Of a stretch of DNA of 48,655 bases, positions 3,515 to 34,416 are shown piece by piece. Where the stretch lies: contig JAFZVH010000013.1 of assembly GCA_017617915.1 (NCBI GenBank), positions 1 to 48,655 of the forward strand, read 5' to 3'. The stretch is from Alphaproteobacteria bacterium (GTDB lineage: Bacteria > Pseudomonadota > Alphaproteobacteria > Rs-D84). The notes under the pieces were generated by a model. It did no database searches, was not told the origin of the DNA, and was given only the letters and a program-made list of their open reading frames with translations. Position 1 is the stretch's first letter. Every line of letters starts with the position of its first letter. The position numbers and the translations under genes are program-made.

Positions 3515-4630
3515 ATGAATAAAATCATATATTTAGATGCCGCGGCCAGTGCCTTAAAACCAAAATCAGTTATAAAGACCGAGGGTGATTTTTTGCGTAA
3601 ATCTTATGCAAATGCAGGGCGCGGTGTGTGCGCCCGTGCAGTGGCGGTTGATGATATGGTGTCGCGTGTGCGTGGTCGTGTTGCAGAATTTATAAATGCA
3701 AACCCTGCGCAGATTGTTTTCTCGTCTGGTGCAACGGATGGCCTGAATCGCATTGTAAATATTTTAACCAGTCAACCGTCTTACAGCGAATCGTCCAATT
3801 TTACAGTTTCAGATTTAGATCATCATTCGGCGCGCCTGCCATGGGAGGCACTTTTGCATTATGGAAAAATCCGCAAAATGCAAATATTAAAATTGGATGA
3901 AAATTTCGATATAAAAATTGATTCTGTTCCAAAAACAGATTTCTTGATTATAACCGCAATGTCTAATGTGTTGGGGCGGCCGCAGGATGTTGAACAAATT
4001 ATTTCTGCGGCGCGCAGGAAAAACCCAAATGTTATAACCATTGTTGATGCATCGCAATACGTCGTGCATAAACAAATAGATGTAAAAAAATGGGACTGCG
4101 ATTTTATGGTCTTTTCGGGACATAAAATTGGTGCAGATACGGGTGTTGGCGTTTTGTATATTCGCGATTCGGAAAAATATTTGCCAGATAAATTTGGTGG
4201 CGGAATGGTTATGAAAGTTTCTGGTTCAGAACTGGTATTAAACAGCGCGCCTGAAAAGTGGGAGGCAGGCACATTACCACTGACCCAAATTGCAGGGCTG
4301 GGGGCGGCGATAGATTATTTGGAACAAAAGCGTCCGAACCTTTATCTGATTAAATATGCCTATGATGAACTGTCCAAAATGCCACGCGTAAAAATTCTGA
4401 CCGGTCGCGATGCCGCAATTTTAAGTTTCGTTGTTGATGGTATGCATCCATTGGATGTTGGTGCAATGCTGGGGGCGCACAATATCTGTGTGCGTGTTGG
4501 AAATATGTGTGCCGCTTGGATTCATAATGCGATGGGGATTTCGGGTTCTGTGCGCGTGTCGATTGGCGCATGGAATACGATTCAAGATATCAAAGATTTT
4601 ATAAAGGTAATGAAAAAAATAGTGAAATAA
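3515..4630 (+). CDS. sufS: cysteine desulfurase, SufS/CsdA-like class V aminotransferase
   Basis: IYLDAAASALKP N-terminus, PLP-lysine motif FSGHKIG, and a C-terminal catalytic Cys context VRVGNMCAAW...VRVSIGAWNT. Start taken at MNKIIYLD. Confidence 0.85.
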   Translation: MNKIIYLDAAASALKPKSVIKTEGDFLRKSYANAGRGVCARAVAVDDMVSRVRGRVAEFINANPAQIVFSSGATDGLNRIVNILTSQPSYSESSNFTVSDLDHHSARLPWEALLHYGKIRKMQILKLDENFDIKIDSVPKTDFLIITAMSNVLGRPQDVEQIISAARRKNPNVITIVDASQYVVHKQIDVKKWDCDFMVFSGHKIGADTGVGVLYIRDSEKYLPDKFGGGMVMKVSGSELVLNSAPEKWEAGTLPLTQIAGLGAAIDYLEQKRPNLYLIKYAYDELSKMPRVKILTGRDAAILSFVVDGMHPLDVGAMLGAHNICVRVGNMCAAWIHNAMGISGSVRVSIGAWNTIQDIKDFIKVMKKIVK

Positions 4631-4631
4631 A

Positions 4632-4946
4632 ATGGATGCACTTAGACAGACAATCATAGATGCACTGAAAACAGTTTATGACCCAGAAATTCCGGTCAAT
4701 ATTTGGGATATGGGGCTGGTTTATGACATAGATATTTCAGACACATTGGTTGTTATTAAAATGACTTTTACCAGCCCGACCTGTCCAATGATGGAAGAAA
4801 TTTTAATGCAGGTTAAAGACGCTGTTCAGGCGGTGGCGGGTACGCGCAGCGTTCAGGTTGACTTGGTTTGGGAACCTGCGTGGGATTTGTCGCGTATGTC
4901 TGATGCGGCGCGTCTGGAATTAGATTTGACTAACGAAGGTTGGTAA
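4632..4946 (+). CDS. sufT: DUF59/MIP18-family Fe-S assembly protein (SufT-like)
   Basis: VYDPEIPVNIWDMGLVYDI...TFTSPTCPM motif; located between sufS and sufE. Confidence 0.75.
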   Translation: MDALRQTIIDALKTVYDPEIPVNIWDMGLVYDIDISDTLVVIKMTFTSPTCPMMEEILMQVKDAVQAVAGTRSVQVDLVWEPAWDLSRMSDAARLELDLTNEGW

Positions 4947-14250: not shown

Positions 14251-14332
14251 TGGATAGTGTAAGTGGTTAGTGGGGTTCTCGTCCAATGCTTCCAGACCAT
14301 AATTAAAACCGACGCAAGGTCGGTTTGAATTC

Positions 14333-14444
14333 TGGTGGGCGCATGGGGATTGCACATCCCCAACATAAATGTCGGGGACCCCTTCCACTCGCAACGGTTT
14401 CGCTGCGCCGAGGGCTTGCAAAACCGGCTATCGTGTCGAACCCC
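14333..14444 (-). other. 112-nt tRNA-3'-end-bearing structured module, copy A
   Basis: Minus strand: GGGGTTCGACACG...GGCGCAGCGAAACCGTTGCG...TGGGGA-TGTGCAA-TCCCCA-TGCGCCC-ACCA. It is followed by the same terminator as tRNA-Lys. Confidence 0.3.
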
Positions 14445-14507
14445 TTGGGGTTCTCGTCCGATGCTTCCAGACCATAATTAAAACCGACGCAAGGTCGGTT
14501 TGAATTC

Positions 14508-14619
14508 TGGTGGGCGCATGGGGATTGCACATCCCCAACATAAATGTCGGGGCCCCCTTCCACTCGCAACGGTTTCGCTGCGCCGATGGCTTGCAAAACC
14601 GGCTATCGTGTCGAACCCC
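14508..14619 (-). other. 112-nt tRNA-3'-end-bearing structured module, copy B
   Basis: Near-identical to copy A, with 2 substitutions inside the module. Confidence 0.3.
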
Positions 14620-14654
14620 TTGGGGTTCTCGTCCAATGCTTCCAGACCATAATT

Positions 14655-14676
14655 AAAACCGACGCAAGGTCGGTTT
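14655..14676 (-). terminator. terminator of tRNA-Lys (copies also at 14305-14326 and 14480-14501)
   Basis: Minus strand: aaaccgacc-ttgc-gtcggtttt, followed by aatta. Confidence 0.7.
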
Positions 14677-14682
14677 GAATTC

Positions 14683-14758
14683 TGGTGGGCGCATGGGGAC
14701 TCGAACCCCAGACCCACTGATTAAGAGTCAGTTGCTCTACCAACTGAGCTATGCACCC
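14683..14758 (-). tRNA. tRNA-Lys (anticodon CUU), CCA encoded
   Basis: GGGTGCA-TA-GCTC-AGTTGGTA-GAGC-A-ACTGA-CTCTTAA-TCAGT-GGGTC-TGGGG-TTCGAGT-CCCCA-TGCGCCC-A-CCA. A full 76-nt cloverleaf. Confidence 0.95.
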
Positions 14759-14788
14759 ATGGATCTATTCTTTTTCCAAGACCCGCTG

Positions 14789-14816
14789 ATTATATACCTT
14801 TTTTTCTAAATTGCAA
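14789..14816 (-). promoter_or_regulatory. sigma70 promoter for tRNA-Lys (TTGCAA-N16-TATAAT)
   Basis: Minus strand: cTTGCAAtttagaaaaaaaggtaTATAATcagcgg, about 30 nt upstream of the tRNA 5' end. Confidence 0.65.
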
Positions 14817-19151: not shown

Positions 19152-19310
19152 TTATTTGTTTTTGCAATTATTCTTGCGCAGATTGGTCATTTTTTGTTTT
19201 TGAATTTTTTCAATTGCGCCTTGTGCGACCAACCCAGAAACAGTTTGCTGAGTATCTTCTACGATTTTAAAACTTTGACCAGTGATTGGATTATAGTGAG
19301 CTTCTATCAT
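19152..19310 (-). CDS. hypothetical 52-aa protein
   Basis: ATG 19310 follows AAAAGGAAAAAAA. MIEAHYNPITGQSFKIVEDTQQTVSGLVAQGAIEKIQKQKMTNLRKNNCKNK. It exactly fills the gatB-miaB gap, and its stop is 2 nt before the miaB ATG. Below the track cutoff. Confidence 0.3.
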   Translation of the reverse strand: MIEAHYNPITGQSFKIVEDTQQTVSGLVAQGAIEKIQKQKMTNLRKNNCKNK

Positions 19311-20897: not shown

Positions 20898-20973
20898 GGC
20901 CAGATAGCTCAGTTGGTAGAGCAAGGGACTGAAAATCCCTGTGTCAGTGGTTCGATTCCACTTCTGGCCACCA
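20898..20973 (+). tRNA. tRNA-Phe (anticodon GAA), CCA encoded
   Basis: GGCCAGA-TA-GCTC-AGTTGGTA-GAGC-A-AGGGA-CTGAAAA-TCCCT-GTGTC-AGTGG-TTCGATT-CCACT-TCTGGCC-A-CCA. Confidence 0.95.
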
Positions 20974-20977
20974 TTTT

Positions 20978-22444
20978 TTATTTCCCCATAACTTTTGTTG
21001 GTCTGTTATCGACATTTGCGCATTGTTCAATATGCTTTGCCAATTGCAACGCGCGAACATCATCAAACTTGCGGCCGACAACCTGCATCCCCAATGGTAA
21101 ACCGTTGGCGGCTAAACCGCATGGGACACTGACCGCTGGGATTCCCGCCAAGTTCATTGCAACAGTGAACAAGTCCAGTGCGTAATATTCCAGTGGTGTC
21201 AAATCTGAATCCAGTGGTAATGCGGTATTTGCACCCGATGGGCAAACAATCAAATCGCAATTTTCAAATGCGCGATCAAACGCGTCCGCAATTAAACGGC
21301 GCACACGTGCAGCCTGCATAAAGTACACTTCATACGAAGAACTGGACAGAACGGCGGTGCCGATAATCATACGGCGTTTTACTTCGTCACCAAAGCCCGC
21401 TGCGCGTGTCTTTTTATATGTGTCGTAAATATCACTGCCTTCAACTCTCAGACCATAGCGCACACCATCATAACGCGCAAGGTTCGAAGATGCCTCGGCT
21501 GGGGCGATAACATAATATGCCGCCAATGCATCCAAAATATTTGGAATAGAAACTTCGACGATTTCGGCGCCCAGTGATTTCAAATCGGCAACGCGTTTTT
21601 CAAACAAATTTTTCATATCATCGGAAACTTTCACATCGGCCAGTTCGCGAATTATACCAACACGCAATTTTTTTCCGTCGCCCAAGATTGGTTGCAGTGG
21701 CACAGAGATTTCTGTTTTAACATCGCTGCTGGTCGAATCTTTTGGGTCGTGCCCCGCCATTACGGACAGCAACAAGGCCGCATCATCCACAGTGCGTGCG
21801 ATTGGGCCAGGGGTATCAAGACTTGATGCAAACGCAACACAGCCCCAGCGCGAACACAGACCGTATGTTGGTTTTACCCCAACCAGACCAGTGATAGAGC
21901 AGGGAAAACGAATAGAGCCACCAGTATCTGTTCCGGTTGCGCCCATCGCCATACCCGATGCAACCGCCGAAGTTGAACCGCCCGAAGAACCGCCTGCGGT
22001 TAAATGGCGTTCCAATTGCCATGGATTGACAGGTGCGCCAAAGAACGAAGTTTTAGAAAAGGTTCCCATCGCGAATTCGTCCAAATTGGACTTGCCCAGC
22101 AATACCGTACCGCTATCGATAAATTTTTGTGAAATTGTTGATTCATATTCAGGAACAAAGTTTTCCAATATACGCGATGCCGCCGTTGTGCGAATGCCAC
22201 GTGTTGCAAATAAATCTTTCATTGCAATTGGAATACCGTCCAGCACGCGCGGGGTTCTGTTTTTAATGCGTTCATCCGCCGCCGCCGCGTCCGCCAAAGC
22301 GCGTTCAGGCGTAGTCGTAATATACGCATTTAATTTTGGGTTATACTTTTCAATGCGTTCAATATGTGCGCGCGCAAGTTCGGTCGCAGATATTTCGCGC
22401 TTTGCAAGTTTTTGTAATGCTTCGGTTATGGTCAAGTCTATCAT
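20978..22444 (-). CDS. gatA: Asp/Glu-tRNA amidotransferase subunit A
   Basis: Amidase signature GGSSGGSTSAVASG...GTDTGGSIRFP; 488 aa. Confidence 0.95.
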   Translation of the reverse strand: MIDLTITEALQKLAKREISATELARAHIERIEKYNPKLNAYITTTPERALADAAAADERIKNRTPRVLDGIPIAMKDLFATRGIRTTAASRILENFVPEYESTISQKFIDSGTVLLGKSNLDEFAMGTFSKTSFFGAPVNPWQLERHLTAGGSSGGSTSAVASGMAMGATGTDTGGSIRFPCSITGLVGVKPTYGLCSRWGCVAFASSLDTPGPIARTVDDAALLLSVMAGHDPKDSTSSDVKTEISVPLQPILGDGKKLRVGIIRELADVKVSDDMKNLFEKRVADLKSLGAEIVEVSIPNILDALAAYYVIAPAEASSNLARYDGVRYGLRVEGSDIYDTYKKTRAAGFGDEVKRRMIIGTAVLSSSSYEVYFMQAARVRRLIADAFDRAFENCDLIVCPSGANTALPLDSDLTPLEYYALDLFTVAMNLAGIPAVSVPCGLAANGLPLGMQVVGRKFDDVRALQLAKHIEQCANVDNRPTKVMGK

Positions 22445-22453
22445 TTTGCGTTC

Positions 22454-23056
22454 CTATTTTTGGTTTTCCAATGCTGCATTTATAACACTTTTATGAAACT
22501 TTTTTGCAAAATTTTCATAATGTTGCAATTCTTTTCTGCCAAAGGCACCACACTTGCGGTACATATTAATCATATCTTGGCATTCCTTATATGTGGGCGC
22601 ATCCATAATTGTAACACCAAAGTCGCGTTTCAAGAAATAGCCCAAGTCATATTCGTTTGCGCCCGACCAAGATTTGCGGTCTATGACAGTTTGCTTAATA
22701 CTCCATGCTTGTACGCTGCCCCGTATTTTGTTTAGTTTTTTTATTGCCGTATCGGGGTGCAGTGGTTTGCCGCGGCGTGCAATATTATTCGCAATTAAAT
22801 ACTGTGCATCGATTTCGGCATTAATGCGTCTAAATATTGGCATAAATTTATCCAATATTTTCTTATATTCTTGCTCGGTGGAGGCCAGCTTTGATTGTAT
22901 CATCATCTTTTGGACCTGCCATTGAATTTGCGTCACCAAGTGTTCCATGCGTTTTGTATGTTTTTCTTTGTGTGTAATTTTTTTATAGCCCCAACTGTGC
23001 ATAATTTTTTCAGTCCGGGTTTTCATAGGGTCATGAATCTTGCATTTGTGTGTCAT
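22454..23056 (-). CDS. hypothetical protein (200 aa), cassette gene 4
   Basis: Its ATG directly abuts the upstream TAG (TAGATG), and it ends 9 nt before the gatA ATG. It is Lys/His-rich and I recognise no motif. Confidence 0.55.
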   Translation of the reverse strand: MTHKCKIHDPMKTRTEKIMHSWGYKKITHKEKHTKRMEHLVTQIQWQVQKMMIQSKLASTEQEYKKILDKFMPIFRRINAEIDAQYLIANNIARRGKPLHPDTAIKKLNKIRGSVQAWSIKQTVIDRKSWSGANEYDLGYFLKRDFGVTIMDAPTYKECQDMINMYRKCGAFGRKELQHYENFAKKFHKSVINAALENQK

Positions 23057-23461
23057 CTATTTTGCCTGTGAGAGTTTATTTTGTTTTGCATAGTTCTGGC
23101 GCAGAGTGTCCATTTGTTTGTCATAAAATTCTTGTTCTGTGGTCAGTTCTTGAATCAATTTATTATATTGTTCAATTTTCGATTTGATTTCTGCTTTGTG
23201 GTTGTTTATCGCGGTCTCTGCGGTCTTAAAGTCGCGATATTTTGATGTTTGCATTTCTGCAATTTTGATGTGAATTTCTTCTAAACTGGTTTTGCCAATA
23301 TTTCTAAAATCTTGCAGTTTACGTGTGGTCAATACATGCAGCAAATCATCCAGTGTTTCAATGCCTGCACCAGCCAACGCATTAGTTGCACGGGTTGTCA
23401 GCCCCAGTTCGGAAATAGGCGCGGCAAGTTCTTGTTTGGTAAAATTATATTCGTTGGACAT
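23057..23461 (-). CDS. hypothetical protein with RpoA alpha-CTD-like helix-hairpin-helix domain plus coiled coil, cassette gene 3
   Basis: PISELGLTTRATNALAGAGIETLDDLLHVLTTRKLQDFRNIGKTSLEEIHIKI, compared with the alpha-CTD pattern LELTVRSANCLK..I..IGDLV....ELLK..NLGKKSLTEIK. The C-terminal half is heptad-like. Confidence 0.6.
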   Translation of the reverse strand: MSNEYNFTKQELAAPISELGLTTRATNALAGAGIETLDDLLHVLTTRKLQDFRNIGKTSLEEIHIKIAEMQTSKYRDFKTAETAINNHKAEIKSKIEQYNKLIQELTTEQEFYDKQMDTLRQNYAKQNKLSQAK

Positions 23462-23467
23462 AGTCGT

Positions 23468-23890
23468 TTATCTTTCTGTTTTGTACTTGTTCGGAAACAA
23501 AATTTTGCCGACATATTCACGTATAAACGGTGATGTACATTCGCCATCTCGTAGGCATGCCGGACAGCCAGCAGGAAAACAAGCAGGACATTCATTTGTA
23601 ATCATATTCGGAATGATTTCTATCAGTAATTCATTTGGTTTGTTTTTTGCAACATGTGGCATAAATGTTTTCGGGGCATCAAAAGACCGCGCATGAATTA
23701 CAGATTTATCAAAATGAACGCTGACCGCACAGCCGTCAATGAATTTCCAACCTTTGTGCTGACTTAGTTTGGCGATAAAATCTTGCCGTTGCTGTTCGGT
23801 CCAGTTGCCGATTTTTATATCCTGCGTTGCCAGTACACAAGAGTTATCAGGATAATTTGCAAGAATCACATTTGTTTTTTTATGTGGCAT
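23468..23890 (-). CDS. hypothetical Cys-cluster protein (140 aa), cassette gene 2
   Basis: C-terminal NECPACFPAGCPACLRDGEC (CxxC-x4-CxxC-x5-C). A 6-nt gap separates it from the next gene. Confidence 0.55.
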   Translation of the reverse strand: MPHKKTNVILANYPDNSCVLATQDIKIGNWTEQQRQDFIAKLSQHKGWKFIDGCAVSVHFDKSVIHARSFDAPKTFMPHVAKNKPNELLIEIIPNMITNECPACFPAGCPACLRDGECTSPFIREYVGKILFPNKYKTER

Positions 23891-23895
23891 TTGTT

Positions 23896-24177
23896 CTAGC
23901 GTCCTTGGTTTAATTTTTCGCGGGCAAATCTGTTTGTGGTGATAAGATTGTTAATCCTATAATATCGGGTCAAATACAAGTGCGGTATAATATCCACAGT
24001 TTCACCGACAGAATATGAAAATTTGTCAGTGTATTCAGATATACAGCTGACAATTTTTGTGCGTAGTCCATCTGCATTGTACTTTTCACGCTGATACGTG
24101 GCTTCATTTGCGGGACATGGCAATAAAGCAGAATTCAACGGAGTGATTGAGAGTTGTTCTGTAATAATGTGTGTCAT
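23896..24177 (-). CDS. hypothetical protein (93 aa), cassette gene 1
   Basis: Starts 18 nt after the gatC stop. No recognisable motif. Confidence 0.45.
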   Translation of the reverse strand: MTHIITEQLSITPLNSALLPCPANEATYQREKYNADGLRTKIVSCISEYTDKFSYSVGETVDIIPHLYLTRYYRINNLITTNRFAREKLNQGR

Positions 24178-24195: not shown

Positions 24196-24492
24196 TTAAT
24201 CCCCGTCCATAACCTTTGGAACCGCGAAATAGCCGCGTGATACGCCCGCCGAATCTGGCGAATTTGCCAAAACCGCATCACGAATACCGCCGTCGGTGAC
24301 AGCGTCCCCACGCAGGGGCAAGTCGTGTTCCGCAGGGCTAAGCATTGGTTCAACACCAGTTGTGTCGATTTTCTGTAATTTATCAATCCATTCGACAACG
24401 GAATCGATGTTCATTTGTTCCAGTTTTTCATCAGGAATATCAATTTGTATCAAATCTGCAAATTTGCGTAATTGTTGCTTGCTAAATGCCAT
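24196..24492 (-). CDS. gatC: Asp/Glu-tRNA amidotransferase subunit C
   Basis: LIQIDIPDEKLEQM...VEWIDKLQKIDTTGVEPM...LRGDAV; 98 aa. Confidence 0.9.
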   Translation of the reverse strand: MAFSKQQLRKFADLIQIDIPDEKLEQMNIDSVVEWIDKLQKIDTTGVEPMLSPAEHDLPLRGDAVTDGGIRDAVLANSPDSAGVSRGYFAVPKVMDGD

Positions 24493-24528
24493 TTTGAATC
24501 CTATATTTAGTGTAGAGGTGATTATACA

Positions 24529-24969
24529 ATGATTTTGCCAAATTTCAAGGGTTTTCCGAGTTCGCGCTTGCTGGGGGTCGATTGGGGCGCGCGGCGCACA
24601 GGTATTGCCGTTTCATTTGATGACGGAATGTTTGTTGCAACGCGGCCTGTGCTAAATATGGCAAAGTATAGCCACGCGGAATTGGCGGCGCAAATCGCCC
24701 AAATTGCGACGGATGAACGATGCGATGGAATCGTTGTTGGACTGCCTTTGCGTATGGATGGAACTGAATCCGACACAACGGCGATGGTGCGAGAATTTGT
24801 TGCAGTATTAGAAACCAAAACAAATTTACCCATAGCCATGATAGATGAAACATTATCATCAGATGCGGCATCGGAAAATATAAAGCGTGCCGATATCAAA
24901 GAAAAACTTGATTCCGCCGCGGCACGTGTGATATTGGAAAACGCAATCGCAATGATAAAACGGGCATAA
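24529..24969 (+). CDS. ruvX: YqgF/RuvX putative pre-16S rRNA nuclease
   Basis: LGVDWGARRTGIAVS...GIVVGLPLRMDGTES...SSDAASE. RBS GAGGTG. Confidence 0.9.
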   Translation: MILPNFKGFPSSRLLGVDWGARRTGIAVSFDDGMFVATRPVLNMAKYSHAELAAQIAQIATDERCDGIVVGLPLRMDGTESDTTAMVREFVAVLETKTNLPIAMIDETLSSDAASENIKRADIKEKLDSAAARVILENAIAMIKRA

Positions 24970-26003: not shown

Positions 26004-26021
26004 GTGCGATACCTCCACAAA

Positions 26022-26702
26022 TTATTCTATCACAACTTGACCGTTTGACAAAGTGGTTATATCGGTTGGGGCAACCAATTCAGTGAAATGCGGTTGATGA
26101 CTGATAAACACAAATGTTGTATTCGGCATAGAGCTCATCGTTTGCGCGATTAGCGTTTGCAGTTCTGAATCTGCGCCGGAATCTGGTTCATCCAACAGTG
26201 CAAGTTTTGGCCTTGTCAAAATTAAACGCAACAGCATTAGTCTTTTTCTTTCGCCGCCCGAAAAGCCAACATTGACACAGCGGTTCAACCATTCGCGTGG
26301 AATGTTTAATTTTTCGCGCGCAGATTCCAACATTTCAAGAAATTTGCCCATTGGTAAATCTTGGCCTGTTTGAAAATGATGATGCGCCGCCAAAGAATGT
26401 TTCAGAAAACTGATAATCGTCAGACCTGGAATTTCGGGAACATTTTGTGCGCCCGTAAATATGCCGGCTAATGCCCGCGATGTAGCGTTTTCACCTGTGA
26501 TATCGCGGCCGTCAAAAATAATTTGTCCTGAATCTATTTTATAATCTGGGTTGCCTGCAATACTTGCCACCAATGTAGATTTGCCAGAACCATTATGCCC
26601 CGCCAGCAAATGACGCGCACCAGATTCCACCGACATATTTACATCGGTCAGTAATTTTTTGTCGCCAAATGATACAGACAAATTTTTTATTTCTAAAATC
26701 AT
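26022..26702 (-). CDS. sufC: Fe-S cluster assembly ATPase SufC
   Basis: Walker A GHNGSGKST, signature FSGGERKR, Walker B LALLDEPDSG and H-loop ISHQ; directly downstream of sufB. Confidence 0.85.
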   Translation of the reverse strand: MILEIKNLSVSFGDKKLLTDVNMSVESGARHLLAGHNGSGKSTLVASIAGNPDYKIDSGQIIFDGRDITGENATSRALAGIFTGAQNVPEIPGLTIISFLKHSLAAHHHFQTGQDLPMGKFLEMLESAREKLNIPREWLNRCVNVGFSGGERKRLMLLRLILTRPKLALLDEPDSGADSELQTLIAQTMSSMPNTTFVFISHQPHFTELVAPTDITTLSNGQVVIE

Positions 26703-28594: not shown

Positions 28595-28689
28595 AGTTCT
28601 TTCCTTCGGTTGGTTGCTAAAAGTATAACATACTTTTTCCGATTCGCCCTAAATTTATAAAAAACATTTCATTATTTTGTTTTTAGGTC

Positions 28690-28718
28690 TTGCACAGATT
28701 CGGTCAAATTGGTATAAT
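28690..28718 (+). promoter_or_regulatory. near-consensus sigma70 promoter (TTGCAC-N17-TATAAT)
   Basis: TTGCAC at 28690-28695 and TATAAT at 28713-28718. RBS AAGGAAAGGAAGG precedes ATG 28761. Confidence 0.7.
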
Positions 28719-28760
28719 ACACAATGTAATTACAGAAAATACCAAGGAAAGGAAGGTTAT

Positions 28761-29750
28761 ATGTTCCGTAAGATTTTGATTATTGCAATGTTTGCAACCG
28801 CCGCAGGCTACTGCTTTGCGGCGACAACTCTGCCCCAGGTGGTTACTTCAGAGGTGTTTTACACAACGCGTCCGAATAATAATCAAAGGGTCTATGTCGC
28901 ACCGGATGAAGGTTTTTATGAAGATACCTATGCGGGCGATGAATACCAAATGCCTGCCCAGGATACAGGAATACCTGTTTGGCCGATTGCGGGTTCTGAT
29001 GCCGATGTGGTTGTTTCTTGCGATGGTAAAACAGAATGTGCCAAGGGCGATAAAGAAAACTTTAAGATTGTGTCCAAGATTGGCTCTGATTTAGTTGTAG
29101 AAAACAGCTTTAATATGCCGAACAACCCCGGTACAGGTTGGTCTGGGGGGGCAAATATGTTGCATGGGACCCAGATACCGGTTGGCTTTGATGATGAATG
29201 TGGGCGCGGTTCAGAAATGCCGTTGTTGCATCGTGAAGTACTGGAAGACGATGGTGGTAATGTTTTGGCGGTTTCACGTTCTGGTCGTGCCAAATGCGCA
29301 AAGTATGCAGATGGTTATGATGCGTATTTGGCCAAAAACGGTTTGACAGAAAAAAGCGCAAATGGTGGTATTGTCACAGGGGCAGGTGTCGTTTCTATGA
29401 ATGCTGATGGTACTATTAGTTTAACAAATGATATTATTGGTGAAACGGAAATATCTGTGGATATGGCTGAAGATATGACACCAAATATTCAGGACCAAGT
29501 TCGTTCTTGGGTTGTTGCAAATGGTCAAACTTTGCGTGAAGTATTACAGTCTTGGTGCGACAAAGAAGGATGGGATTTAGTTTGGGCAACATCGCGCGAA
29601 TATCCTATTCAGGCCAGTGCAGTATTCAAAGGACGTTTTGTCGATGTCGCGTCCGCTGTTGTTCGGAATTTTGGTCGTGCAATTCCTGTGCCGTATGCAA
29701 AGTTCTATAAAGGAAATCGCGTTTTGGTGGTTAGCACAACAGAAGAATAG
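28761..29750 (+). CDS. secreted protein with TcpQ/PilL-like C-terminal domain (putative secretin partner)
   Basis: Signal peptide MFRKILIIAMFATAAGYCFA. The C-terminus WVVANGQTLREVLQSWCDKEGWDLVWATSREYPIQASAVFKGRFVDVASAVVRNF matches the W.v..G.tL...L..W....GW.l.W.....i.....f.G.f..A pattern I associate with the TcpQ family. Confidence 0.55.
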   Translation: MFRKILIIAMFATAAGYCFAATTLPQVVTSEVFYTTRPNNNQRVYVAPDEGFYEDTYAGDEYQMPAQDTGIPVWPIAGSDADVVVSCDGKTECAKGDKENFKIVSKIGSDLVVENSFNMPNNPGTGWSGGANMLHGTQIPVGFDDECGRGSEMPLLHREVLEDDGGNVLAVSRSGRAKCAKYADGYDAYLAKNGLTEKSANGGIVTGAGVVSMNADGTISLTNDIIGETEISVDMAEDMTPNIQDQVRSWVVANGQTLREVLQSWCDKEGWDLVWATSREYPIQASAVFKGRFVDVASAVVRNFGRAIPVPYAKFYKGNRVLVVSTTEE

Positions 29751-29778
29751 TCAAACAAAATTCGTAGGAGATTGATAA

Positions 29779-31404
29779 ATGACAAAATGTATAAAATTTT
29801 TTACAGGAATCTTGGCGGCGGTTGTGATGCTTGGGTGCGCGTATCAAGATTCTGCCAAAGTTGCGGCGTCTGTTGACCAGGATTTTATCAATGTCTATGA
29901 TGCGTTTGAAATGGCGAAAAATCCGCGGGCCAAGGTTGCAAGTGCTGATACTGTTTCTATGTCCGAAGGCGTTTGGTTGGGTGATAAATCTATGTTGGTT
30001 GATCATAAAAATAATTTGCCAAAGCAATTTGAAACAGATTCCGGAATTACAATTTTATTAAACGAACCTGTGACATTACAGGTCTTGGCAAATAATATAA
30101 ATTCTATTACCCGTATTCCTGTGAAAATAGACAGCCAAGTTGCCAGCGAAAAACTTAAAAAGACAATGAATATTGCGTATACAGGAAAACTTTCTGGTTT
30201 GTTGTCGCAGGTTGCAACAGATTTGGATTTGCTGTGGTACTATGACAAAACAGCCATTGTGTTCTATGAAACAGAAACACGTACTTTTACATTGTATGCG
30301 CTGGGAACGGATGTGTCTTACCAGTCTTCGGTGCAAACAGATAATGGCAACCAAGTCTACTTGGAATCTACATTGAAAGAATGGGACGAAGTTGAAAGCA
30401 CAATAGCATCTATTATAGGGAAATCTGAAAATGCTAACTTTAATGTATCGCGCAGTTTGGGAACAATCACTGTAACGGCGCCACCATCGGTGTTGGCACG
30501 TGTTGGTGATTATATCGCGCGCCAGAACAAGCGCTTGTCTCAGTTGGTTACAATTGATGTTAAGGTCTTGCAGGTTTCTATTGCAAATGATTCTGCGTTT
30601 GGATTGAATTTGGCGGCGGCAATAAATTCTGCATCTGGCTTGAATATCGTTGCAAATCCAAAGAATAACTTGGCAACGACCGAAGCAAGTTCTATGAATA
30701 TTGCAGTTTTGTCTAATACGGTTTCCGCATTGACAGGTGCAACGCATATGGAAAACGGTTCCAGTGTTGCAGGCGCATACACCCAAGATCAGATTAACAA
30801 TGGTTCTTTGTCTGGCTTGGCGGGCAGTACGGCTTTAATTGAAGCGTTAGCAAAGCAGGGCAAAGTGTCTTTGGTTACGAATGTAGGTGTGACCACAAGA
30901 AATAATCGCGTAGCGCCGGTAAATAATACCAAGAGCACTGGTTATATTAAACGTTTCGAATCGCGCAATTTTACAACTGTGGAATCCAGTACGGTTGACC
31001 AAGATAATTTGGAAACGGGTTTTTCAATGCAGTTGTTGCCGAATATTTTGGAAAATGGCAAAATCTTGTTGCTGTTCAGAATGTCTGTTCGTGAATTGTT
31101 AAAGATGTCCAGTCAAACTATTGGCGAAGTGACATTGCAGTTGCCAGAGGTTGAAGAACGCAGCTTTATGCAGGAAGTCATTATGGAATCAGGGCAGATG
31201 TTGGTCGTATCAGGTTTTGAAAAGCAAACCAATAACGATACGCGTTACGGCCTTGGTGATCCAGACTTTATGTTGCTGTCTGGATCGCGTGAAACGGCAT
31301 CACAGCGCGATGTGTTGGTTGTTATACTGACACCACAGGTTTTGGTCAGCCCGATGGATGCGGAACGCGCAATTCAGCAGCATTGGGGTGCACCTTTAAA
31401 TTAA
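29779..31404 (+). CDS. lipoprotein secretin (PilN/TcpC/BfpB-like type IVb-pilus-type outer-membrane channel)
   Basis: Lipobox VMLGC, N-domains (GTITVTAPPSVLARVGDYIARQNKRLSQLVTIDVKVLQVSI) and a C-terminal secretin domain (GFSMQLLPNILENGKILLLFRMSV...LPEVEERSFMQEVIMESGQMLVVSGFE...RDVLVVILTPQVL). Confidence 0.8.
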   Translation: MTKCIKFFTGILAAVVMLGCAYQDSAKVAASVDQDFINVYDAFEMAKNPRAKVASADTVSMSEGVWLGDKSMLVDHKNNLPKQFETDSGITILLNEPVTLQVLANNINSITRIPVKIDSQVASEKLKKTMNIAYTGKLSGLLSQVATDLDLLWYYDKTAIVFYETETRTFTLYALGTDVSYQSSVQTDNGNQVYLESTLKEWDEVESTIASIIGKSENANFNVSRSLGTITVTAPPSVLARVGDYIARQNKRLSQLVTIDVKVLQVSIANDSAFGLNLAAAINSASGLNIVANPKNNLATTEASSMNIAVLSNTVSALTGATHMENGSSVAGAYTQDQINNGSLSGLAGSTALIEALAKQGKVSLVTNVGVTTRNNRVAPVNNTKSTGYIKRFESRNFTTVESSTVDQDNLETGFSMQLLPNILENGKILLLFRMSVRELLKMSSQTIGEVTLQLPEVEERSFMQEVIMESGQMLVVSGFEKQTNNDTRYGLGDPDFMLLSGSRETASQRDVLVVILTPQVLVSPMDAERAIQQHWGAPLN

Positions 31405-33341: not shown

Positions 33342-33364
33342 CACCCATCTGATGGGTGTTTTTT
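33342..33364 (+). terminator. rho-independent terminator
   Basis: cacccat-ctg-atgggtg followed by TTTTTT. It overlaps the track's 33352 start, which is therefore rejected. Confidence 0.8.
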
Positions 33365-33402
33365 CTTGCAGTTTAATAGGTAATAATCTTATAGTGTCTG
33401 CT

Positions 33403-34416
33403 ATGAATGATTTATTTGAACGTTTGTTGATATTGCGCAGCCCAAAAATTGGACCAGCAACCTATAACGATTTGCTTGGTCGTTTTGGAACGCCCGCCGC
33501 GGTTGTTGATTTTTTGAGTCCCTCCCAAGATCTGCGGGATGCGGTTAGTCGTGAACTGGATGCGGCACAAGAATTAGATGTAAAGTTTGTATCTGATTCG
33601 GATGATTATTATCCAGCCGCGTTAAAACAAATAAAAAATCATCCGCCAATATTATCTGTTCGCGGAAATTTGGATGCATTGCGGCGCGAATCGGTTTCGA
33701 TTGTTGGAACAAGGCATGCAACAGGCACTGGAATGAATTTTGTTGCGGATATGGCAGCGGCATTTGCACAGCATTCTGTCGCGGTTGTGTCGGGTATGGC
33801 GATGGGAACAGATTCGGCGGCACATCGTGGGGCGCTGCGGGCGGCGGGCAACGCGAATACAATTGCGGTGTTGGCGGGCGGTGTAGATTATATTTGGCCA
33901 TTGGAAAACGAATCGTTGTACTACGAGATTTTATCGCGTGGCGCAATTGTTAGTGAAATGCCCATAGGCTTTGTTCCAAAAGGAACAAACTTTGTGCAAA
34001 GAAATCGAATCATTGCTGGAATCGGCACCAAACTAATTCTGTCCGAGGCGGATTTAGGTTCGGGCAGTATGAAAACCGCTGAATTTGCAATACAAATGGG
34101 TCGTCAAATATATGCGGTGCCGTCGCATCCCGCCGATTCGCGGGCCACAGGACCAAATTCTCTGATTCGGTCTGGGGCAGCAATATTGTGCCAAGGGCTG
34201 CAAGATTTCTTTGTGGCAGACCAAAAAACGCAAAAAGAGATAAAAAAATCCGAATCGGAAAATGCGATTCTTGATAAAATTGGAACTGTTCCAGTATCAG
34301 AATCTGTATTGGCAGAGATTGTCGGAAAAAATATTTCGGAAATTAAACGAGAACTCGTCATATTAGAATTGCAAGGTTTAATAAGAAAAACAGATTTAGG
34401 TTATGTTCGTGCATAG
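33403..34416 (+). CDS. dprA: DNA-processing protein DprA (Smf)
   Basis: SIVGTRHATGTGMNFV...VVSGMAMGTDSAAHRGAL...TIAVLAGGVD..YP.EN...VQRNRIIAG. Confidence 0.9.
   Translation: MNDLFERLLILRSPKIGPATYNDLLGRFGTPAAVVDFLSPSQDLRDAVSRELDAAQELDVKFVSDSDDYYPAALKQIKNHPPILSVRGNLDALRRESVSIVGTRHATGTGMNFVADMAAAFAQHSVAVVSGMAMGTDSAAHRGALRAAGNANTIAVLAGGVDYIWPLENESLYYEILSRGAIVSEMPIGFVPKGTNFVQRNRIIAGIGTKLILSEADLGSGSMKTAEFAIQMGRQIYAVPSHPADSRATGPNSLIRSGAAILCQGLQDFFVADQKTQKEIKKSESENAILDKIGTVPVSESVLAEIVGKNISEIKRELVILELQGLIRKTDLGYVRA

Follow-up and report, generated by a model that had tools for sequence, protein, structure and literature searches.

Flexible, or replacement-type, genomic islands, known from streamlined marine bacteria, capsule and O-antigen loci and defense hotspots, occupy a fixed site between core genes, where their content varies, closely related strains differ in the presence of genes, and homologous recombination in the flanking regions swaps divergent alleles. 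The contig analyzed here (JAFZVH010000013.1 of the assembly GCA_017617915.1; 48,655 nucleotides, referred to below as the window) contains a site of this kind between gatC and gatA, two genes of the tRNA-dependent amidotransferase, where four small open reading frames (ORFs), designated O1 to O4, form a compact cassette. With its fixed position and its recombinational exchange of alleles, the gatC-gatA site behaves as a miniature replacement-type flexible genomic islet. It differs from the islands mentioned above in being tiny (0-1.8 kb) and free of tRNA, integrase and mobile-element hallmarks, as well as in two unusual features: it lies inside an essential, packed operon downstream of the operon's promoter, and it carries members of no more than four orphan families.

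Two other kinds of described systems resemble the junction in part. Like integron cassette arrays, it contains promoterless same-strand ORFs, variable in number and order, behind one upstream promoter; unlike them, it has neither attC-like repeats nor an integrase, its genes are separated by only 0-18 nt, and its turnover proceeds via recombination in the flanking genes. With free-standing homing-endonuclease genes and phage "morons" it shares ORFs placed precisely between conserved genes, polymorphism, and tracts of high identity that extend slightly into the flanks. In contrast to these elements, the cassette resides in a bacterial chromosome, lacks phage homologs as well as promoter- or terminator-like sites above chance, and carries no nuclease signature: neither GIY-YIG, HNH, LAGLIDADG nor any other nuclease domain was detected with Pfam and NCBIfam in the four proteins and in 49 O4 and 36 O2 family members, and a Foldseek search with the O2 and O4 models found no nuclease fold.

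As identified by scanning GTDB species genomes with GatA, the window originates from the lineage Candidatus Enterousia of the uncultured order Rs-D84, gut bacteria with reduced genomes (below ~1 Mb). For the order Rs-D84, genome sizes of 0.67-1.6 Mb and the lack of the tricarboxylic acid cycle and of respiration have been described (PMC12306168). In the published literature Enterousia is treated in general terms only, and no account of the gatC-gatA locus was found.

Organization of the Locus

The variable junction is enclosed by two conserved arms, gatC on the left (24196-24492, minus strand, 98 aa; Pfam GatC, 6.6e-13) and gatA on the right (20978-22444, minus strand, 488 aa; Pfam Amidase, 4e-138). 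An earlier inspection of the window made without database searches (the sequence-only reading) had placed between them four ORFs of 93, 140, 134, and 200 aa, and their coordinates proved correct; all lie on the minus strand. O1 (23896-24177, minus strand, pI 8.6) represents an orphan family, O2 (23468-23890, minus strand) a Cys4 orphan family that is the core resident of the junction, and O4 (22454-23056, minus strand, pI 9.9) a basic orphan family, while O3 (23057-23461, minus strand) combines a helix-hairpin-helix domain resembling the C-terminal domain of the RNA polymerase alpha subunit (alpha-CTD) with a C-terminal coiled coil. The spacers of 18, 5, 6, 0, and 9 nt reported by that reading are exact, the stop codon of O3 directly abutting the start codon of O4 (TAGATG). 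Its premise that gatC and gatA normally adjoin each other also holds, since they are less than 80 nt apart in 18 of 22 outgroup Alphaproteobacteria.

Upstream of gatC, in or beside the conserved 37-nt divergent spacer that separates this gene from ruvX, there is a near-consensus sigma-70 promoter (24521-24548, minus strand; TTGAAA-16-TATAAT, 11 of 12 consensus matches), which a consensus scan ranked as the best sigma-70 match in 8 kb. Within the cassette the scan found promoter matches of no more than 9 of 12 positions and one weak terminator-like site, and the region-wide counts were at the level of shuffled sequences, in agreement with the earlier statement that no terminator or obvious promoter is seen inside the cassette. 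This anatomy suggests that gatC, the four ORFs and gatA would be transcribed by read-through from the gatC promoter, presumably the only one serving them, and that the expression of gatA would have to traverse the cassette. As to translation, the purine-rich, AGG-type Shine-Dalgarno-like stretch of each ORF is located within the end of the preceding one, which indicates that the cassette ORFs are probably translated in a coupled or re-initiated manner. The leader of gatA, CAAAAATAGGAACGCAAAATG, consists of the end codons of whichever ORF precedes it (NQK-stop or KQK-stop) together with the 9-nt spacer, and is conserved. In the window and in L003-L065 (L-numbers denote loci of related genomes) unrelated families of junction ORFs share tails rich in K, Q, and R, such as KQK, NQK, NRTKHK, and TRQK before the stop codon; apparently, the ORFs read into the conserved A-rich leader and Shine-Dalgarno region of the downstream gene.

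The locus had been described as a gatCAB operon. The genes gatC and gatA and the cassette share a strand, but the series is not uninterrupted through gatB: a tRNA-Phe(GAA) gene in antisense orientation (20898-20973, plus strand; ARAGORN, Rfam 74 bits) splits gatA from gatB, so that gatCAB is not one simple operon here. The gatA-gatB spacing is 131-202 nt in most Enterousia species, as it is in the window, and is consistent with the presence of the same tRNA-Phe gene in them.

Content of the Junction in Related Genomes

The junction was surveyed in 60 related genomes, every junction ORF being assigned with family hidden Markov models, and gap lengths were recorded in 58 Enterousia-type species. 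It is empty in 23 genomes and occupied in 37. The gatC-gatA gap varies from -2 to 1764 nt (90 nt or less in 23 species, 180 nt or more in 35), while in the same 58 species the sufB-sufC spacing is nearly constant and the ruvX-gatC spacing is fixed at 37 nt, with L039 as an exception. Among the 62 ORFs of the occupied junctions, 61 belong to O1, O2, the alpha-CTD plus coiled-coil family (O3) or O4. The most frequent is O2, found, if its variant F9 is included, in 30 of the 37 occupied genomes; O3 is present in 11, O1 in 10, and O4 in 4 genomes of the 60. These families form 21 distinct junction architectures, O2 alone and O1 alone among them, and the window has the fullest combination found, O1-O2-O3-O4. 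The gatC-gatA junction is a hypervariable islet in an essential operon, which contains from zero to four promoterless, same-strand, abutting genes. A general hotspot accepting any cargo was considered for this site and rejected, because only four families occur there.

Two loci with about 97% DNA identity to the window, L003 and L004, have the arrangement gatC-O1-O2-gatA and an ORF of 180 aa after gatA, and the more distant L006 and L007 have gatC-O2-O3-O4-gatA, O1 being absent. Database homologs added other gene orders, namely gatC-O4-O2-gatA, gatC-O1-O4-O2-gatA, and gatC-O2-O4-O4-O4-gatA, and the content of the cassette differs even between strains whose GatA proteins are 99% identical. The synteny comparison bears out the lineage specificity of the cassette but not its movement as a four-gene unit, L003 having only O1-O2 and L006 only O2-O3-O4; with such partial and reordered combinations in relatives, the cassette is no single mobile unit.

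Outside the junction, members of the four families were found in the 6-kb flanks of one locus only, L039, which has additional copies of O2 just upstream of gatC, and no paralogues of the cassette genes were found in the window. In L039 about three additional O2 paralogues (3600-4800) lie between ruvX and gatC, and this is the sole departure from the 37-nt ruvX-gatC spacer. Profile searches of 5.8 billion proteins returned only 47 clusters for O2, 61 for O4, and 37 for O1. Pfam domains are absent from all of them, and those few for which a source is named are hypothetical proteins from metagenome-assembled genomes of Alphaproteobacteria. As judged from these sequence searches, the four families are confined to the Enterousia lineage and, almost always, to the gatC-gatA junction.

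Allele Exchange by Recombination

Comparison with L006 shows how the junction changes. The DNA flanking it is 64-90% identical between the window and L006 in 300-nt segments (80-90% for the flanking genes), whereas from the 3' third of gatC (from ~24270) through O2-O3-O4 the identity is 96-99%; in gatA it is about 97% over the first ~190 nt and then 88-91% beyond ~22250. The approximate recombination tract common to the window and L006 extends from ~22250 to ~24290. The synonymous divergence (dS) follows the same pattern, being 0.48-0.76 for ruvX, gatC, gatA, gatB, and miaB, 0.10 for O2, 0.009 for O4, and 0 for O3. According to the informative sites, the window is L003-like through gatC and then becomes L006-like from inside O2, near 23521. 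Because this switch occurs within O2, what looks like a "precise indel" with respect to L003 is the replacement of one allele by another, the crossovers being located in O2 and gatA. The pair L032/L044, whose junctions are 93.5% identical vs. 77.7% for gatA, provides a second, independent case, and L034/L085 represent the converse case, with 84.9% identity in the junction vs. 93.2% in gatA.

Whole junction alleles are replaced by homologous recombination, without element-encoded machinery. No direct or inverted repeats bounding the cassette were found, and no integrase was seen among the annotated genes within ~10 kb on either side. The left-hand crossovers are situated in gatC or O2, and the right-hand ones within the initial ~200 nt of gatA. 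Precise deletion of ORFs by microhomology was set aside, since the similarity of the junctions is better accounted for by a leader that is conserved in the gene downstream, together with recombinational replacement of alleles. Genes for TcpQ-like and secretin proteins (28677-31404, plus strand) and for DprA (33352-34416, plus strand) are located within 10 kb of the cassette; given these pilus and DNA-uptake genes, natural transformation followed by homologous recombination would be a sufficient mechanism for the exchange of alleles.

Between gatA and tRNA-Phe, L003 (11903-12445) and L006 (12914-13456) possess the 180-aa orphan ORF (family F8), which is missing from the corresponding place in the window (20974-20985). 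The repeat AATAAAAAATG borders the insertion. The ORF has no Pfam match and is nearly identical in L003 and L006, with a dS of 0.02 vs. 0.4-0.7 in the flanks.

Origin of the Cassette

The sequence-only reading regarded the cassette as a possibly phage-derived, acquired module. A phage derivation is contradicted by the absence of phage or plasmid homologs, both by sequence and by fold, of bounding repeats and of a recombinase. The individual searches were uniformly negative: PHROGs gave chance-level matches only for the cassette proteins, IMG/VR contigs scanned with the O2 and O4 profiles contained no loci, tblastn of all four proteins against 50,697 phage genomes gave no match, and neither did blastn of the cassette DNA against the PLSDB plasmids.

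The lower GC content of the cassette relative to gatA, which in the same reading would fit an acquired module, is real (0.383-0.398 vs. 0.482). However, it falls within the native range, as the window median is 0.428 and other native genes go down to 0.35-0.39, and the GC content at third codon positions (GC3) of the cassette genes, 0.33-0.41, matches that of the host (window median 0.39). The composition therefore gives no sign of foreign origin, and compositional foreignness was rejected. As for an acquired module in general, the cassette is accessory (23 of the 60 junctions are empty), variable between strains and laterally exchanged, but its recent foreign origin does not hold. A recently acquired four-gene module derived from a phage or another mobile element, which the GC content below that of gatA and the variable content of the junction might suggest, is accordingly hardly credible: beside the host-like GC3 and the negative searches just described, the four genes occur independently of each other, and their families are endemic to the lineage and to the junction, all of which largely refutes it. 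The families are long-standing, fast-evolving residents of the Enterousia gene pool.

Protein Families

In agreement with the sequence-only reading, no enzyme motif was recognized in the cassette proteins with Pfam, NCBIfam, PHROGs, and PADLOC or in the Pfam scans of family members, and the two features that it had pointed out, an alpha-CTD-like domain in O3 (PF03118) and a Cys cluster in O2, are both present. Residues 4-68 of O3 (nt 23258-23452) match RNA_pol_A_CTD (PF03118) with 59.1 bits at a cutoff of 23.8 and an E-value of 3.7e-16, and the protein aligns with solved RpoA CTDs (E 2e-7 to 1e-5). Its R24, N27, G56, K57, and S59 are aligned to R265, N268, G296, K297, and S299 of Escherichia coli RpoA, which we take to be the DNA-binding residues of that protein (the alpha-CTD 265 determinant); K298 and C269 of E. 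coli RpoA are replaced in O3 by T58 and A28, respectively. The C-terminal half of O3 matches coiled-coil families only (Pfam). The best score with the NCBIfam equivalog of rpoA is 54.5 bits, far below the cutoff of 356, the alignment being confined to the C-terminal 65-90 positions. Judging by these alignments, O3 is a member of the PF03118 domain family but not an RpoA, since the alpha N-terminal domain is lacking and a coiled coil is present instead. A split RpoA, in which O3 would provide the alpha-CTD of the cell, was rejected, because O3 occurs in just 11 of the 60 genomes. In 10 of these 11 genomes the alpha-CTD adjoins O2 or is fused to it.

The Cys cluster of O2 has the form C101-x2-C104-x4-C109-x2-C112-x5-C118, i.e., CPAC-x4-CPAC-x5-C. 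Family alignments show C54, C101, C109, G116, and C118 to be invariant and yield the family motif C-x2-NL-x2-GKC-x-DEF-I-x4-G-x2-LFP-x2-Y. An exhaustive HMMER search gave at least 294 representatives of O2 at 50% clustering. The AlphaFold2 model (pLDDT 79.8, pTM 0.77) consists of a beta-sheet domain and two helices, and no similar structure was found for it in the PDB with Foldseek (here and for O4, best E of at least 0.1 and TM below 0.3); neither was there a Pfam match in 36 family members. The variant F9 is a weak relative of O2 via the C-terminal GKC motif (hhalign E 4e-4, probability 36%). O2 is repeatedly found in fusions: O2-alpha-CTD in L038/P0189 (P-numbers denote representatives of protein clusters), alpha-CTD-O2-alpha-CTD in L052, O2-O1 in P0196, and ACP-like-O2, with a domain resembling acyl carrier protein (ACP, PP-binding), in P0247, P0253, P0273, and P0282, four clusters that are less than 50% identical to each other. 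The context of the last fusion type is informative for P0282 only: at L099 (4342-5753), off the gat locus, it belongs to a separate three-gene operon with a promoter-like sequence of its own, encoding proteins of 87 aa, 118 aa (ACP-like), and 250 aa (ACP-O2).

The invariant residues of O1 in the family alignment are I5, L14, C21, Q29, E31, and Y33, and the 37 clusters of its homologs span 89-99 aa. In O4 the most conserved part is the loop LIANNIARRGKPLHxDTAIKKL, with A93 and L99 invariant and R95 and H100 nearly so. The AlphaFold2 model of O4 (pLDDT 88.5, pTM 0.83) combines a beta-hairpin with a helical bundle; a Foldseek search against PDB and BFVD found no similar structure, and no Pfam domain was detected in 49 family members. 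Homologs of O4 were located in three further contexts, every time in the gatC-gatA junction. In public annotation the protein is apparently 190 aa long (cluster member P0022); the conserved motif K-I/F-H-D-P-M-K (KIHDPMK), which starts at residue 6, favors the 200-aa start over this NCBI call. For O1, O2, and O4, no credible match was obtained in Pfam, NCBIfam, PHROGs, or PADLOC, the comparison of their profiles with PDB sequences revealed no remote homology, and hhalign showed no relatedness of O2 to O1 or to O4.

The almost exclusive association of O1, O2, and O4 with the gatC-gatA junction, the RNA-centered gene neighborhood and the very basic nature of O4 would be in line with accessory factors that aid or regulate the tRNA-dependent amidotransferase or neighboring tRNA functions (tRNA-Phe, miaB, ruvX). 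We consider such a role very improbable, given that gatC abuts gatA in 23 of the 60 genomes and in 18 of the 22 outgroups, that the cassettes differ between strains with 99% identical GatA, that O2 also occurs in the ACP-linked operon unrelated to gat, and that the proteins have no similarity to known partners.

Selection on the Junction Genes

Between moderately diverged species the ratio of non-synonymous to synonymous divergence (dN/dS) of the junction genes is 0.06-0.40, as estimated from 25-113 non-synonymous changes; the value expected of ORFs that lack a coding signature is near 1. For gatA and gatB the ratio is 0.02-0.12, and dN of the junction genes is 5-20 times higher. Taken together, dN/dS, the invariant residues, and the confident AlphaFold2 models show that the junction ORFs are real genes.

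In the most recent comparisons, dN/dS rises to 0.4-1.15, a range derived from 2-22 substitutions only. Such relaxed constraint would be expected of hitchhikers protected by their position, of little or no benefit to the host, which are expressed and hard to delete between the promoter-proximal gatC and the essential gatA and which spread via transformation and recombination in a deletion-biased, promoter-poor genome. About a third of the species have none of the four genes, and lineage-specific orphans are also present in the gatB-miaB and sufC-AI-2E junctions; both facts fit this explanation, as does the genome size of 0.67-1.6 Mb (PMC12306168). We nevertheless regard it as rather improbable: over longer spans the genes are under purifying selection, Cys and polar residues are invariant, co-evolution was sufficient for confident AlphaFold2 models, O2 has been maintained while diversifying into 294 or more clusters at 50% identity, and the repertoire restricted to four families, together with recurrent fusions, points to a specific function.

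Possible Function

To our mind, the best overall explanation, and one to which we give about even chances, is a hypervariable islet that turns over by recombination, is expressed by operon read-through and encodes binding proteins directed at transcription. The four products may be soluble, non-enzymatic binding proteins that act jointly on the transcription or nucleoid apparatus. None of them has a hydrophobic segment, in line with a cytoplasmic location, and the pI of O1, O2, and O4 is 8.6-9.9. The conserved positions of O2 and O4 look structural (Cys, Gly, and hydrophobic residues, in O4 also R95 and H100), unlike catalytic sets. O3 is predicted to be a dimeric DNA binder of the alpha-CTD type. 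O2, a putative Cys4 module of the metal or redox kind, would have an alpha-CTD as its partner, whether this is encoded by the neighboring gene, fused to O2 or, where O2 occurs alone, provided by RpoA; O1 may serve as a partner of O2, and O4 as a basic nucleic-acid binder. That the products are non-enzymatic, interact with each other and are aimed at DNA or RNA polymerase is proposed here tentatively, at less than even chances, from the identity of domains, the fusions and the composition.

Spx, an anti-alpha factor, and WhiB exemplify small RNA polymerase-binding proteins with Cys residues. In its logic O2 may be analogous to them, being a protein of ~140 aa with invariant Cys residues that is repeatedly found beside or fused to an alpha-CTD; in contrast, it has no sequence or fold similarity to ArsC/Spx or WhiB, and its Cys spacing, C-x46-C-x7-C-x8-C, is different.

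Several observations weigh against a role in transcription. Certain alpha-CTD members, e.g., those of L008 and L014, have another residue in place of the DNA-contacting Arg or Asn. Alpha-CTD accompanies O2 in 10 of 11 genomes, little above the frequency of O2 itself (30 of 37), so that only the fusions carry weight, and the fusion of O2 to ACP-like domains in a separate operon is not explained by a transcription model. The recent dN/dS values mentioned above do not favor it either. Finally, rapid turnover, a raised dN, and lateral exchange characterize conflict genes more than housekeeping regulators.

The last point leads to another explanation, a lineage-specific defense or counter-defense kit against phages or other mobile DNA, kept polymorphic by frequency-dependent selection. 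In one version, a free alpha-CTD would be a decoy or sensor for phage factors targeting the RNA polymerase alpha subunit, and O2, O1, and O4 would act as effectors or adaptors. The presence or absence of genes differs between 97%-identical strains, alleles cross species, dN exceeds that of the flanking genes by a factor of 5-20, paralogues expand (three extra O2 in L039, three O4 in L097), and an alpha-CTD-like domain is also present in the BREX kinase PglW. Still, we find a conflict system unlikely. Among the 5,027 models of PADLOC-DB v2 there was no credible match to the cassette, and O2 and O4 had no match at all; O3 matches the PglW model only via its alpha-CTD region, and the PD-Lambda-6 match of O1 (16 bits, E 0.0025), seen in only 2 of 37 family members, is due to chance. 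On the basis of these negative results a known defense system was rejected. In addition, the cassette lacks an effector of the nuclease, ATPase, TIR, Sir2, or kinase type, the conserved residues look structural, and the site is occupied by four families only, whereas defense hotspots gather diverse cargo.

Returning to transcription-directed binding proteins, a more specific and more speculative version of this proposal, which we would put forward with considerable reserve, is a modular system built around O2 as a new Cys4 fold docking onto alpha-CTD, functioning either as a redox- or metal-responsive transcription switch or as an alpha-CTD decoy that senses invaders. Within a streamlined genome, the essential operon would offer it a niche that is expressed constitutively and protected from deletion, interspecies recombination would diversify it, and both O2 and O4 would represent new folds.

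Neighboring Junctions and Other Features of the Window

The gatB-miaB junction, with a gap of 8-1860 nt, is a second hypervariable one and the sole other that varies as widely. In the window it contains a 52-aa ORF of the family F2 (19152-19310, minus strand), 25 members of which occur at that position; the orphans of this junction (window and L008-L065) belong to the small basic families F2, with an N-terminal NPITG-type motif, F3, and F6. The sufC-AI-2E junction is bimodal, the two genes either abutting, as in the window (26018-26022), or being separated by one orphan ORF of ~300 aa (35 of 49 species; L088, 1829-2746), for which no Pfam match was found. The larger ORFs of the neighboring junctions are mostly orphans, to which one NUDIX protein and one methyltransferase should be added.

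Farther along the window, at 14271-14795, there are three tandem copies of a 175-nt unit, the identity to the first being 98% for the second and 60% for the third, which overlaps the gene of tRNA-Lys(CTT) (14683-14758). An ORF of 97 aa located within these repeats (14303-14596, GC 0.57) is probably spurious.

Implications

Four uncharacterized protein families are defined here, and for two of them, O2 and O4, the models predict with confidence folds that have no known structural relative. The fusions of O2 with alpha-CTD, with O1, and with ACP provide testable hypotheses on interactions of factors directed at the alpha-CTD of RNA polymerase. The lineage that carries these genes is uncultured and common in the guts of humans and livestock. 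In such a genome-reduced gut bacterium, an essential and packed housekeeping operon can host a hypervariable accessory site, whose genes borrow the promoter of the operon and are exchanged with the essential genes serving as recombination arms.

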